Origin: Shigella phage sb1
Sequence record: PQ666539
Reading direction: 5' to 3' (one strand)
Length of the DNA stretch: 64,000 nt
The translations under genes were made by a program, and so were the position numbers. Position 1 is the stretch's first letter. Every line of letters begins with the position of its first letter. Of the stretch, positions 17,339 to 21,130 are shown piece after piece. The notes under the pieces were generated by a model, which was not told the DNA's origin, searched no databases, and saw nothing but the letters and a program-made list of their open reading frames with translations.

Positions 17339-17627
17339 ATCGGTGTTTGCAATGACGGCATTTATAACGAAGATTACTAGTCTGCCAATGGACTAATTGA
17401 ACCTGTTCAGTACCGCATTCAGGGCAATTAGGAACGCTTTTAGAAGCCCTTTCGCAACGTTCAACCATAGTCATAATGGCATCCCAGGCTGGAGGTTTAA
17501 AATCTAAATCATCACAACCATGAATCTTTCCACGCATTTCCAGATCGTCTTCTTCACCAGCCATAATAATTTTAATTAGACTGGAATTACTTGAAGCTGC
17601 AATGTCTTCTAATAGACGCTTTTTCAT
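17310..17627 (-). CDS. Hypothetical zinc-ribbon protein (CPECG...CRHCKH)
   Basis: ORF track; two Cys pairs. Confidence 0.4.
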
Positions 17628-18553
17628 TTCAATACCTCAATGGCATTACGTAAACCGTTTGCTTTTGCATTAAGAGCTTTTAACAATTTGGTGTGTTCGG
17701 CAATCTGGGCTTCAACTTCAATCAAGCGAGCATTGAGATATTCACGTTCTTCGCTCAGGTTATCAACCTTTTCTACTTTAGGTTCTTTTACAACTGGCTT
17801 ATACGTATTAGGGTTCTTCAGTTTAATTAGAATGCGTGAGCTGTATAACATTGAACCATTATCTTCGGTTTCATCATACATTTCCACTACGTCCATAATT
17901 TTTAACATCATGCGAAGTTTATAAGACAACGAACGAATAGTTTTGTTGTGCTTATTAATTTCTTTAGCTGTCATGGTGCCGAGATTACGTGAGTAATAAT
18001 AAGGAACCTGGATATTAATTAATACTGATGAACCACCTGGCTTGTGTGTTACTTCATCAGCAATAACCCAGTCCTTAACATGAACTGTATTTGTACGGTC
18101 ATCGCCTGCGGTAAATAGTTTGCGAGCATGCTTAAAAAGCATATTCACTTGGGCATTGAATTGACAAGCAAATTTATCAGCAAATTTAGTTTCAGGAATG
18201 GTAGATAACCAATCAGCCAAATGGGTCTTTTTAACATCGTTAACAATAGTAAATTCAACCAAATCGGTTATAGATGTCGTAGATTTTATGAAGCTCGGCT
18301 TCATAAAGTTTTTAATGTTATCTCGAGCTACAGTAGAAGATAACATACGAGAACGTTTAAACCATTCAAGCAAATTGCCTAACGAATGAGAATAAGCGTT
18401 TTGAGTATCTTTACAGATATGATTTTCCTGGCCAACATATTGAAGGAAATCACGAAGAATATTATTAATTACTGCTCTGTGTCCGATCTGATAATTACGG
18501 TGTTTAGTAATAAGACTGTCAAAATAATCAATATAATGTTTACGAGTTTTCAT
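17624..18553 (-). CDS. Hypothetical protein (309 aa) with C-terminal coiled coil; member of local paralogue array
   Basis: ORF track; C-terminus heptad-like and similar in character to the next three ORFs. Confidence 0.45.
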   Translation of the reverse strand: MKTRKHYIDYFDSLITKHRNYQIGHRAVINNILRDFLQYVGQENHICKDTQNAYSHSLGNLLEWFKRSRMLSSTVARDNIKNFMKPSFIKSTTSITDLVEFTIVNDVKKTHLADWLSTIPETKFADKFACQFNAQVNMLFKHARKLFTAGDDRTNTVHVKDWVIADEVTHKPGGSSVLINIQVPYYYSRNLGTMTAKEINKHNKTIRSLSYKLRMMLKIMDVVEMYDETEDNGSMLYSSRILIKLKNPNTYKPVVKEPKVEKVDNLSEEREYLNARLIEVEAQIAEHTKLLKALNAKANGLRNAIEVLK

Positions 18554-18605
18554 GTTCTTCTCACTTGATTAATGATTTATACTCCGAGCCATCCTTGGCT
18601 TTAAA

Positions 18606-19607
18606 TTACTTAATTAACTGTAAAGCTTGTTCAAGACGATCCAAGCGATTAACAGATTCTTCCCAAATCCTTTTAGCCTGCTCATATTCTTTCTGCGCTT
18701 TATTAGAAATTTCTAGAACTTCCTTATAAGCTTTTTCTAGTGCAATAACTTCTGGACGAATTTCTAACGGTTCAGGTGAATCGTCAAGACATTCCATTAG
18801 TTCCTCAAGGGTAGTTTCTTCTTTAGGAGTATTCACAATTTCTTCACATTTTTGTTGATAAATTTCTTTATCAGTCGGTGAGTACGCACATTTCACTTCA
18901 CGGAGGCTAATTATAATTTTATATCCTTCCCAACCACACATATTTTTGAAAGGATATGTATGAATACTTTTTACAGTTTCCATACAGCCCAAAGCCGCCT
19001 CTAATTGATAAGTTATAGTGCTAGCAATTGAGAAAAATTTATTAATATTCTTTTGGTTAGCGTTTGGTGTAAAAAATCCATAATTCACAAAAATAGCTAC
19101 TTTATTTTTATCAAGTTCATTTTCTTTTACGATAATCATATCAGAAGCCAAAGGATGAATTTGACGATAATCGCCATAACATAATTTAGAAGCTGATTTT
19201 AGAATTTGCTTCTTGAAAAGTCTGAAATTACTAATCCAACGACGAGTAAAAATATTCTCAGGGTCTTCTTTATTATTAAGATGATATGAATTAACATCAC
19301 CGAACCAATTATATCCTACTACATCTTTAGTTCGTTTAATTTCTTTCCCAAATTTACTGAGAATATCTCTGTTGACTAAGTATGAAAGAAGACGAGAACC
19401 TTTGAAGGTTTCCTTAATGTCATCTTTATATGTACGACTAGAAATTTCACAAACTTCATAAATAAATTTGTCGGAAGAGACAATACTTGCACTAGTATTA
19501 TTGATCCATTGATTGATAATAGAAATCACACTATTCTGACTAGACATAGGTTTAACTTTATCATCAATAACGCTATTGAACGATTTGATATATTCGTTAC
19601 GAGTCAT
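18606..19607 (-). CDS. Hypothetical protein (~333 aa), paralogue array member
   Basis: Track ORF trimmed to Met preceded by GAGGAG. Confidence 0.45.
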   Translation of the reverse strand: MTRNEYIKSFNSVIDDKVKPMSSQNSVISIINQWINNTSASIVSSDKFIYEVCEISSRTYKDDIKETFKGSRLLSYLVNRDILSKFGKEIKRTKDVVGYNWFGDVNSYHLNNKEDPENIFTRRWISNFRLFKKQILKSASKLCYGDYRQIHPLASDMIIVKENELDKNKVAIFVNYGFFTPNANQKNINKFFSIASTITYQLEAALGCMETVKSIHTYPFKNMCGWEGYKIIISLREVKCAYSPTDKEIYQQKCEEIVNTPKEETTLEELMECLDDSPEPLEIRPEVIALEKAYKEVLEISNKAQKEYEQAKRIWEESVNRLDRLEQALQLIK

Positions 19608-19664
19608 ATTAATCTCCTCAGTAGAAAGTAAGAACATTATACCACATCCTTGTGACAAAGTAAA

Positions 19665-20687
19665 CTAGTTTAGTGCATTTAGTGCATTGTTCAGTTTAGA
19701 ACGTTGCTTCGTAAGATTTTGAACCCTTGACTGAGCTTTTTCTAGCATCTTTTCAGCTTCTAACACTTCATTAGTTGCTTTAACGAGTTCATCATCTACT
19801 GCCTTGATAGACTTCTCAATCGCATCCGCATGCCATTTTTCAACAGGTTTAAGACTCGGATTTTCAACAGGAAGAAAATTCACTTTATTGAATTTCCATG
19901 CATCTTTATTACTTGAACTATACATCCAAAATTTAGGATCGTTTGATGAGTAATTGGATAAATTTAAGATATCTTGCACTTCCTGCTTTTTCTCTTGTGG
20001 GACTTCGTCCTTTCTCAAAAAATCGTATTTAAATGAAACGATCATATCAAGTTCATACGTTGTTGTGTCTAATTTAAATCGCTCAAAATGAGGTAAAATC
20101 TTAGACTGAACAGCGGCAACAACATACATATACTTAAATGCTTCTGTCAACTGTGATTTAAGGCATTCGCAAATTGAAAGAGAATTTTTTGTATTAGGTT
20201 TAAAGCTAATTCGCGCAGTTCTGTTATTTTCTTTTAATGGTCTTACTTCCATCTGAAGAGTATAACCATCAAATTTCAGGTTCTTTAAGTTAATGTAAGA
20301 ACCTTTTAATCGACTAGCAGTCGACAAAATTTGCTTTAATTGTCTACGGAACAGAGCAATAAATCTCCATTCAATACGATAATGATTTGGATTGAAAAAT
20401 CCAGATGATAAATCGACCTTACTTTGACCAACGCCTTGAACAAATAGAGGATTTTTATAATCAATGGTTTTACAGAAATCGGTAAGCTGCTCACGAGCCG
20501 TCATTTGTGTAATATACCCCGCTTTACTAAAATTACTCACCCATTCACTGCTATTTAGATATTTAAAGTGATGAATAGCACGATTAACTTTATCAGGGTC
20601 TAAATTATTTTCACACAAAAATGTCATAACATTACGAGTATCGCTGGCAGTACGAACCATATCTTCAATTTGAGAACGAGTTTTCAT
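19665..20687 (-). CDS. Hypothetical protein (340 aa), paralogue array member
   Basis: ORF track. Confidence 0.45.
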   Translation of the reverse strand: MKTRSQIEDMVRTASDTRNVMTFLCENNLDPDKVNRAIHHFKYLNSSEWVSNFSKAGYITQMTAREQLTDFCKTIDYKNPLFVQGVGQSKVDLSSGFFNPNHYRIEWRFIALFRRQLKQILSTASRLKGSYINLKNLKFDGYTLQMEVRPLKENNRTARISFKPNTKNSLSICECLKSQLTEAFKYMYVVAAVQSKILPHFERFKLDTTTYELDMIVSFKYDFLRKDEVPQEKKQEVQDILNLSNYSSNDPKFWMYSSSNKDAWKFNKVNFLPVENPSLKPVEKWHADAIEKSIKAVDDELVKATNEVLEAEKMLEKAQSRVQNLTKQRSKLNNALNALN

Positions 20688-20695
20688 GGTGTTCC

Positions 20696-21130
20696 TTAAG
20701 ATTTAAGTAAATCAACAATTTTAATTAACTTTTCACGCTCAGATTTAGCTTTACTACTCAGTCCAGATAGTCTGAAAATTTCATCATCATATTGTTGAAT
20801 ATAAATATTCAGCTCTTCAATTTGCTTATTAAAATAATCAATTTGTTCAGAGTGTTTTTCGTTACTATGAACTGGTACAGGTTTTGTAGGCAATGTAGTT
20901 GAACTGTATTCATCCGGGCGGTAAATTAAAATACAACTTGAACCAATAGGGCATTTTGCACCAGATGAATATTCTAATGTTCCAGATTCTTTTAAAACTT
21001 CAAAAGCTAAACAGAGATGATGCCCCATATTAACATAATCTGTAGAGTGAGCTCTGATGTAATAATCATCGCCACGAGTACTAAATTTAAAGCATTTAAG
21101 GTCTTCTGTATTATTGGTCTTAAAAATCAT
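20696..21130 (-). CDS. Hypothetical protein (144 aa), coiled-coil C-terminus
   Basis: ORF track. Confidence 0.4.
   Translation of the reverse strand: MIFKTNNTEDLKCFKFSTRGDDYYIRAHSTDYVNMGHHLCLAFEVLKESGTLEYSSGAKCPIGSSCILIYRPDEYSSTTLPTKPVPVHSNEKHSEQIDYFNKQIEELNIYIQQYDDEIFRLSGLSSKAKSEREKLIKIVDLLKS

Follow-up and report, generated by a model that had tools for sequence, protein, structure and literature searches.

Organization of the nrdC.3–nrdC.6 array

Within a 64,000-nucleotide stretch of Shigella phage sb1 (record PQ666539; hereafter the window), four adjacent open reading frames (ORFs) occupy positions 17624 to 21130, and an earlier note had described them as a co-oriented tandem array whose products end in heptad-like C-termini. 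All four are present at these positions and on the minus strand, and the C-terminal peptides quoted in that note are exact. Over the 4.4 kb surrounding the array, identity to Shigella phages KNP5 and Sfk20 and Escherichia phage ECp13 is 97%, matches to this 4.4-kb region occur in 687 phage records, and by similarity the window is a portion of a T4-like genome of the genus Tequatrovirus. A gene-by-gene match, in both sequence and gene order, with the annotated Shfl2 and T4 records places the array as the nrdC.3–nrdC.4–nrdC.5–nrdC.6 block of a Tequatrovirus phage, with predicted transcription from the minus strand (Table 1). The comparison with the T4 nrdC.x genes that the earlier note had recommended thus names the ORFs as nrdC.3, nrdC.4, nrdC.5 and part of nrdC.6. 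The fourth ORF (20696–21130) had been taken for a gene of its own; it corresponds instead to residues 153–296 of nrdC.6, a C-terminal fragment that is probably created by an artefactual stop (see below). The genes themselves are known T4 genes, and what is new here is modest: NrdC.3/4 are linked to NrdC.5 at the profile level, NrdC.6 probably belongs with them, and NrdC.3 falls into allele classes.

Table 1. Genes, C-terminal helices and other features of the nrdC.3–nrdC.6 array. Positions are those of the window except in the last row; a/d denotes hydrophobic occupancy at heptad positions a and d versus other positions.
Feature	Position	Strand	Evidence
nrdC.3 orthologue, 309 aa	17624..18553	-	98.7% identity to Shfl2 NrdC.3; phrog_1435 E=4.6e-117
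NrdC.3 heptad helix, about residues 266-309	17627..17758	-	a/d 0.83 vs 0.33; p=0.028
nrdC.4 orthologue, 333 aa	18606..19607	-	88.9% identity to Shfl2 NrdC.4, 89% to T4 NrdC.4
NrdC.4 heptad helix, about residues 285-333, end RLEQALQLIK	18609..18755	-	a/d 0.83 vs 0.23; p=0.004
GAGGAG ribosome-binding site, 6 nt ahead of nrdC.4 ATG	19619-19614	-	read directly in sequence
Promoter-like site GTTTAC-N17-TATAAT, TGn extended -10	19665-19636	-	read directly in sequence
nrdC.5 orthologue, 340 aa, Pfam DUF7235	19665..20687	-	PF23882 match; 94% identity to T4 NrdC.5
NrdC.5 heptad helix, residues 282-340, end KLNNALNALN	19668..19844	-	a/d 0.92 vs 0.17; p=0.0004
nrdC.6 orthologue, 296 codons, interrupted at codon 133	20696..21586	-	tblastn with Shfl2 NrdC.6
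NrdC.6 C-terminal helices, full-length residues 243-296, end KLIKIVDLLKS	20699..20860	-	AlphaFold2 and heptad p
Premature TAA, nrdC.6 codon 133	21188..21190	-	private to this sequence; separates ORFs 21188-21601 and 20696-21130
T4 nrdC.6 frameshift region	9997-10140 of the T4 stretch used (NC_000866)	-	sequence reading

NrdC.3 of the window is only 61% identical to T4 NrdC.3. NrdC.3 and NrdC.4 both align end-to-end with the phrog_1435 profile (E=1.3e-162 for NrdC.4), and residues 1–340 of NrdC.5 align with positions 1–307 of PF23882 (E=1.1e-124; 416.3 bits against a cutoff of 30). The position of nrdC.5 between nrdC.4 and nrdC.6 is the orthologous one in T4-like genomes.

Paralogy of NrdC.3, NrdC.4 and NrdC.5

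The earlier note suggested that the array is a paralogous family and proposed an all-against-all alignment. BLASTP of every ORF pair in the array gives a single significant match, between NrdC.3 and NrdC.4 (E=2.8e-9, 26% identity over the N-terminal 229 residues), and these two belong to the same PHROG (phrog_1435). Pairwise alignment therefore recovers only the NrdC.3–NrdC.4 pair, and the link to NrdC.5 needs profile-profile comparison. We built three family alignments from Gaprivervirus and Dhakavirus arrays plus further homologues. With hhalign, the NrdC.3/4 and NrdC.5 profiles match over 247 collinear columns with 95% probability and E=3.1e-8 (score 64.1, compared with 15.1±2.4 in a column-shuffle null). 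When all of the C-terminal helices are removed the match persists with 88% probability, E=3.3e-6 and z=14.5 (score 46.1, compared with 13.1±2.3); in each case none of 60 shuffles reaches the observed score, and reversed-sequence nulls give E-values of 0.3–0.6. These comparisons show NrdC.3, NrdC.4 and NrdC.5 to be distant paralogues at the profile level, with similarity that extends beyond a low-complexity coiled coil, and the proposed family is borne out for these three genes; full-length NrdC.6 is only a probable member. A hidden Markov model search of all ORFs in the window found no additional family members.

A shared C-terminal heptad helix

To describe the C-termini, we scored hydrophobic occupancy of heptad positions a and d over the last 42 residues of each protein and derived p-values by shuffling the segment. 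In all four C-termini occupancy at a and d is 0.83–0.92, compared with 0.17–0.33 at the other positions, and the heptad register, counted from the C-terminus, is identical in all four proteins. The heptad-like character reported earlier is thus a real periodicity (p=0.0004–0.03). For NrdC.6 the p-value is 0.005 over the last 42 residues and 0.001 over the last 54. AlphaFold2 predicts one 58-residue terminal helix in NrdC.5 (282–339) and two terminal helices in NrdC.6 (243–272 and 278–295), and the C-terminal helix of NrdC.3 aligns end-to-end with that of NrdC.4.

The four proteins also end in a common motif, L-x-x-[AIV]-[LIV]-x-[LVAI]-[LI]-[KN]. The corresponding pattern, L..[AIV][LIV].[LVAI][LI][KN].?$, occurs in exactly these four of the 217 window ORFs of at least 50 aa, although we note that it was defined post hoc and the count shows only that there is no chance occurrence elsewhere in the window. 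Among 51 Tequatrovirus orthologues of NrdC.5 the C-terminal helix is one of the least variable regions, and among 12 such orthologues of NrdC.6 the C-terminal helices are the most conserved part of the protein (0 of 54 columns variable); the N-terminal helices and the linker are the most variable parts of both. The C-terminal helix is conserved among orthologues and is therefore constrained, not merely low-complexity.

Probable membership of NrdC.6

Whether full-length NrdC.6 belongs with the other three is a closer question. The NrdC.3/4 profile matches full-length NrdC.6 with an hhalign score of 36.7 (column-shuffle null 14.5±1.9). Merging the NrdC.3/4 and NrdC.5 alignments helps only modestly in local mode (E=0.004), and in global mode the merged profile gives E=1e-5, compared with 0.016 for a reversed null. 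The AlphaFold2 models of NrdC.5 and NrdC.6 have the same order of elements (N-terminal helices, alpha-alpha, beta-beta, alpha, beta-beta, a disordered linker and the terminal helix), and a common helix motif (FRLFKKQILKSASKL / FRRQLKQILSTASRL / LWENQRRLLALGARL), found in weak sequence alignments, lies on the equivalent helix of both models. Foldseek searches of BFVD with the two models share two significant targets, both uncharacterised proteins: A0A0A0PZG4 of Pectobacterium phage PM2 (E=5e-6 for NrdC.5 and 3e-7 for NrdC.6) and A0A1V0DXL6 of Yersinia phage fHe-Yen9-01 (E=1e-6 and 7e-4). In addition, phrog_26858, which is weakly matched by NrdC.4 (E=3e-4) and by NrdC.5 members (down to E=6e-7), has a near full-length, collinear match with an NrdC.6 member (P0197; E=0.004).

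The alternative is that NrdC.6 is not a paralogue but an unrelated neighbour whose similar size and coiled-coil tail arose by convergence, and several results count in its favour and against common descent. Without the coiled coil the match between NrdC.3/4 and NrdC.6 falls to a score of 20.3 (E=0.044, z=2.1), which 2 of 60 shuffles reach; the direct comparison of NrdC.5 with NrdC.6 is not significant (E=0.12); and NrdC.6 forms a separate family in both PHROGs (phrog_2257) and Pfam (PF26899). The Foldseek template-modelling scores are low (0.3–0.5), long helices may inflate such matches, and the NrdC.5 model is only moderately confident (mean predicted local distance difference test score, pLDDT, of 65). 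Convergence would nonetheless have to account for the same predicted order of secondary structure with a motif on the equivalent helix, for the shared Foldseek targets, for the collinear match of P0197 to a family that NrdC.4 and NrdC.5 also match, and for the merged-profile score. We consider convergence somewhat unlikely and regard NrdC.6 as a probable, though not proven, member of the family.

As a separate observation, the NrdC.5 model also has matches in BFVD at ranks 13–48 to small tail-completion, tail-terminator and head-tail connector proteins. These are non-significant (E=0.016–0.17) and too weak to interpret, and they are of interest only in that defence sirtuins sense virion proteins.

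Distribution and evolution of the family

Sequence searches place the family exclusively in three genera of T4-like coliphages, Tequatrovirus, Gaprivervirus and Dhakavirus, and fold-level matches reach T4-like phages of other hosts. An exhaustive profile search with NrdC.3 and NrdC.4 recovered 11 representative clusters among 1.84 billion proteins, none of them of the NrdC.5 or NrdC.6 type. A word-indexed protein search with NrdC.5 alone found only relatives of at least 79% identity, and alignment-seeded searches added the other genera; a search of IMG/VR for related loci returned no locus below 43% identity. In the Gaprivervirus and Dhakavirus arrays that we examined there is one gene each of the NrdC.6, NrdC.5 and NrdC.4 types, in an order that is kept across the three genera, and no NrdC.3. 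NrdC.3 is therefore best described, from this gene content, as an additional copy of the NrdC.4 type in Tequatrovirus.

Between Shfl2 and KNP5, the ratio of nonsynonymous to synonymous substitution rates (dN/dS) is 0.13–0.24 for the four array genes and 0.00–0.04 for endoVII, nrdC, nrdC.8 and nrdC.9. The array is, by this measure, under purifying selection, with protein change several-fold faster than in its neighbours. NrdC.3 varies in a different manner, falling into discrete allele classes within one genus, with at least 90%, about 77% and about 60% identity to the window type. About 357 NrdC.3 records have at least 90% identity to the window type, 4 have 80–90% and about 290 have less than 80%, and the sampled records below 80% cluster near 75–79% and near 60%. 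When the window protein is compared with the product of T4 nrdC.3 (6934–7860 of the T4 stretch used, NC_000866), the first ~70 and the last ~45 residues are about 85–90% identical and the centre is much more diverged, a cassette-like pattern of conserved termini and a diverged centre.

Individual members are also lost or rearranged in other phages. The T4 reference nrdC.6 (275 aa, NC_000866) has a 1-nt frameshift near codon 257, and the sequence encoding the C-terminal helix (ISIQQYDDEIFRLSGLSSKAKSEREKLIKIVDLLKS, followed by a stop) is intact in the +1 frame and ends 8 nt before the nrdC.5 ATG. In Shigella phage SP18 the NrdC.5-type gene is annotated as two adjacent ORFs (4935–5447 and 5462–5839 of its stretch), and it is split or decayed, in another genus. 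P0056, a 299-aa protein encoded in a 167-kb assembly, is a natural in-frame fusion of NrdC.5 residues ~146–270 to NrdC.3 residues ~136–309; the junction has a short FN..VN microhomology, and nrdC.4 and parts of both neighbours are deleted. Because the junction joins non-equivalent positions, P0056 shows deletion-prone plasticity and not domain swapping.

Domain content

Scans of the four proteins against Pfam, NCBIfam and PADLOC gave only one match above threshold, DUF7235 for NrdC.5, and the weaker matches amount to noise from coiled coils or zinc ribbons. Profile searches of the whole set of PDB sequences returned only coiled-coil or designed-helix noise, with no solved relative, and the fold searches gave no informative fold. 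There is no enzymatic domain in the array proteins in the Pfam, NCBIfam and PDB profile searches, nor a conserved catalytic-type motif, and none of the four has a thioredoxin-family match in Pfam or NCBIfam, although a CxxC motif was not scanned for separately. Many genomes deposited in GenBank label nrdC.3–nrdC.6 as 'thioredoxin'. This widespread label, which is corrected here, seems to have been carried over from the neighbouring nrdC.

A candidate family of counter-defence proteins

Although T4 is the most thoroughly studied phage, three of the four genes still lack a function. The exception is nrdC.5. A T4 deletion mutant fails to plate on ECOR17 or on MG1655 carrying the ECOR17 dsr1 gene, and T4 nrdC.5 supplied from a plasmid restores its plating on dsr1 cells (PMC9391042). 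Dsr1, an NADase with a SIR2 domain, has a sensor that recognises the phage major capsid protein (PMC13581612). The anti-Dsr1 function is that of the T4 allele only, to which the window allele is 94% identical. The earlier note had offered anti-defence as a common reason for such duplications, and this idea has gained ground: T4 nrdC.5 has been shown by experiment to counter Dsr1 (PMC9391042), protein change in the array outpaces that in its neighbours, and the alleles of NrdC.3 are discrete. The earlier interpretation is largely right, and is stronger than that note could know because one member is a proven counter-defence gene. We think it most likely, with reserve, that NrdC.3–6 are counter-defence proteins of a family specific to the T-even phages. 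Should common ancestry and architecture with NrdC.5 hold for NrdC.3, NrdC.4 and probably NrdC.6, these proteins would be specific candidates for additional counter-defence factors, and the discrete NrdC.3 alleles point to a possible site of specificity.

The members would share a common plan of ~300 aa. A helical N-terminal region, which varies, would be followed by a conserved alpha/beta core (alpha-alpha-beta-beta-alpha-beta-beta), then by a disordered linker that is again variable, and last by a conserved amphipathic heptad helix that ends in the common motif. Each paralogue may be an early-expressed counter-defence protein that uses its globular part to bind and neutralise an immune protein of the host (Dsr1 in the case of NrdC.5), by analogy with DSAD1 and DSR2. 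The C-terminal helix could promote coiled-coil oligomerisation and so raise avidity for oligomeric targets, and duplication together with allelic replacement of the globular part could retarget the scaffold to different defences. Some points weigh against this interpretation. The experimental function is that of NrdC.5 alone, and we infer direct binding of Dsr1 only by analogy; moreover, dN/dS values that are below 1 and come from a single genome pair show relaxed or faster evolution, not positive selection.

A quite different possibility is that the proteins have a general host-takeover or metabolic role, for example in NAD+ or nucleotide metabolism or on host machinery, and that the effect of NrdC.5 on Dsr1 is indirect. 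The array does sit among the nucleotide-metabolism genes nrdD, nrdC and nrdH, its dN/dS is well below 1, and other phage systems beat Dsr1 indirectly by rebuilding NAD+ (NARP3, PMC13464706). We regard this as unlikely: the searches described above detect neither an enzymatic or thioredoxin domain nor a catalytic-type motif, the family is confined by sequence to T-even coliphage genera (the 11 clusters noted above), and the discrete replacement of the NrdC.3 core is more in keeping with target-specific recognition than with a housekeeping role. The shared C-terminal motif and heptad register could alternatively mean that the paralogues are subunits of one hetero-oligomeric complex, joined through these helices and with a single joint function, either anti-Dsr1 or some other host-takeover activity. 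The conservation of the helix in NrdC.5 and NrdC.6 is consistent with this, as is the co-inheritance of one gene of each type, in a fixed order, in Tequatrovirus, Gaprivervirus and Dhakavirus. Such a complex is harder to reconcile with the restoration of plating by plasmid-borne nrdC.5 alone (PMC9391042), although the text is silent on whether the paralogues are also deleted in that mutant. It also sits poorly with the natural loss of single members (T4 nrdC.6, frameshifted before the last helix, and the split SP18 gene), with the P0056 fusion that lacks nrdC.4, and with NrdC.3 alleles that swap independently of their neighbours; we judge it quite unlikely.

An extension of the counter-defence interpretation, which we consider improbable as a whole, is that the proteins form a modular anti-immunity platform. 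The C-terminal coiled coil would assemble homo- or hetero-oligomers or dock to a common partner, and the swappable globular cores would serve to decoy or clamp different host pattern-recognition sensors, such as those of the Dsr1/Avs7 type that recognise the major capsid protein (PMC13581612). If this were true, the discrete NrdC.3 alleles would represent retargeting to different variants of defence systems.

A putative nrdC.4 promoter and neighbouring genes

Upstream of nrdC.4, and overlapping the nrdC.5 stop codon, is a near-consensus promoter-like site of the sigma-70/T4-early type. The geometry of this promoter and of the Shine-Dalgarno sequence places the start of nrdC.4 at the ATG at 19607 and not at the upstream TTG at 19658. 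A promoter/terminator scan of the region showed no enrichment of promoter-like sites (22 found, 25 expected), and the assignment therefore depends on the quality and placement of one site, the only one that convinces on inspection; nrdC.4 appears to have its own promoter within the array. Downstream of nrdC.3, the nrdC.2 orthologue (17310–17627, 105 aa) contains CPECG...CRHC and has many weak zinc-ribbon matches in Pfam (best E=0.002), and its C-terminal 47 residues are matched by phrog_9774, labelled 'NrdC-like thioredoxin'. It is probably a small zinc-ribbon protein, and the 4-nt overlap of nrdC.2 and nrdC.3 suggests translational coupling. The nrdD ORF (13399–14841) encodes 480 aa in the window, compared with 605 aa in Sfk20 and ECp13, and nrdD of KNP5 is likewise annotated in two pieces; the short ORF could be due to an intron, as in T4, or to another lesion.

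The split nrdC.6 and other lesions in the sequence

Residues 1–296 of Shfl2 NrdC.6 align by tblastn with positions 21586–20699 at 95.6% identity and with a single in-frame stop. The N-terminal half of the gene is the next upstream ORF, 21188–21601, with its true ATG at 21586. In the phrog_2257 profile this ORF covers positions 1–122 and the fourth ORF of the array positions 143–303, and no intact protein of ~280–296 aa spans the whole phrog_2257/PF26899 profile; the DNA is orthologous but the gene is interrupted. The window reads TGG TAA AAT CAA where Shfl2 and T4 encode W-E-N-Q, so that the stop replaces Glu, and the base that creates it, at 21190, is A in the window and C in both Shfl2 and KNP5. 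In KNP5, Sfk20, ECp13 and Shfl2, nrdC.6 is annotated as one intact 891-nt gene.

Similar lesions occur elsewhere. Relative to Shfl2, nrdC.7, nrdC.8 and nrdC.10 each have an in-frame stop or a frameshift; the nrdC.7 and nrdC.8 stops lie at about 21753–22578, and there are private 1-nt deletions at 23823 (nrdC.10) and 24449 (within the nrdC.11 ORF). The essential baseplate gene 10 is interrupted by an in-frame TAA at 58189–58191, where a relative has TCA, and the essential short-tail-fibre gene 12 has a 1-nt deletion, and thus a frameshift, near 60275. A viable phage cannot carry such lesions in genes 10 and 12. Because the same kinds of private lesion affect these essential genes, the split of nrdC.6 and the other private lesions most likely reflect sequence errors, and no biological meaning should be attached to the split; we rejected a biological pseudogene as unprovable for the same reason. 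Split ORFs elsewhere in the window are suspect too and may be artefacts, since even essential genes bear stops and frameshifts. On visual inspection alone, many private substitutions in the vicinity of nrdC.6 appear to be G-to-T or C-to-A changes.

Comparison with known systems

The closest functional analogue of the proposed activity is DSAD1 of phage SPbeta, which disarms the defence-associated sirtuin NADase DSR2 by binding directly to its sensor region (PMC10973363, PMC11087589). The analogy is one of function; we found no DSAD1-like sequence or fold similarity in the array proteins. The NAD+-reconstitution systems NARP1, NARP2 and NARP3 likewise overcome Dsr1-type NAD+ depletion (PMC13464706), but these are enzymes, whereas NrdC.3–6 have no detected enzymatic domain or motif.

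Within T4 itself, the characterised counterpart is NrdC.5 (Srikant, Guegler and Laub 2022; PMC9391042), to which the window orthologue corresponds in length and position as well as in sequence. The other three correspond to the hypothetical proteins NrdC.3, NrdC.4 and NrdC.6 of T4, to which they are orthologous by sequence and synteny (phrog_1435 and phrog_2257, with PF26897 and PF26899 assigned in precomputed annotation). They differ in that NrdC.3 of the window is of another allele class than that of T4, as its 61% identity indicates, and in that nrdC.6 is stopped at codon 133 in the window and frameshifted near codon 257 in T4. Databases treat NrdC.3/4, NrdC.5 and NrdC.6 as unrelated families, whereas the profile comparison presented here links NrdC.3/4 to NrdC.5.

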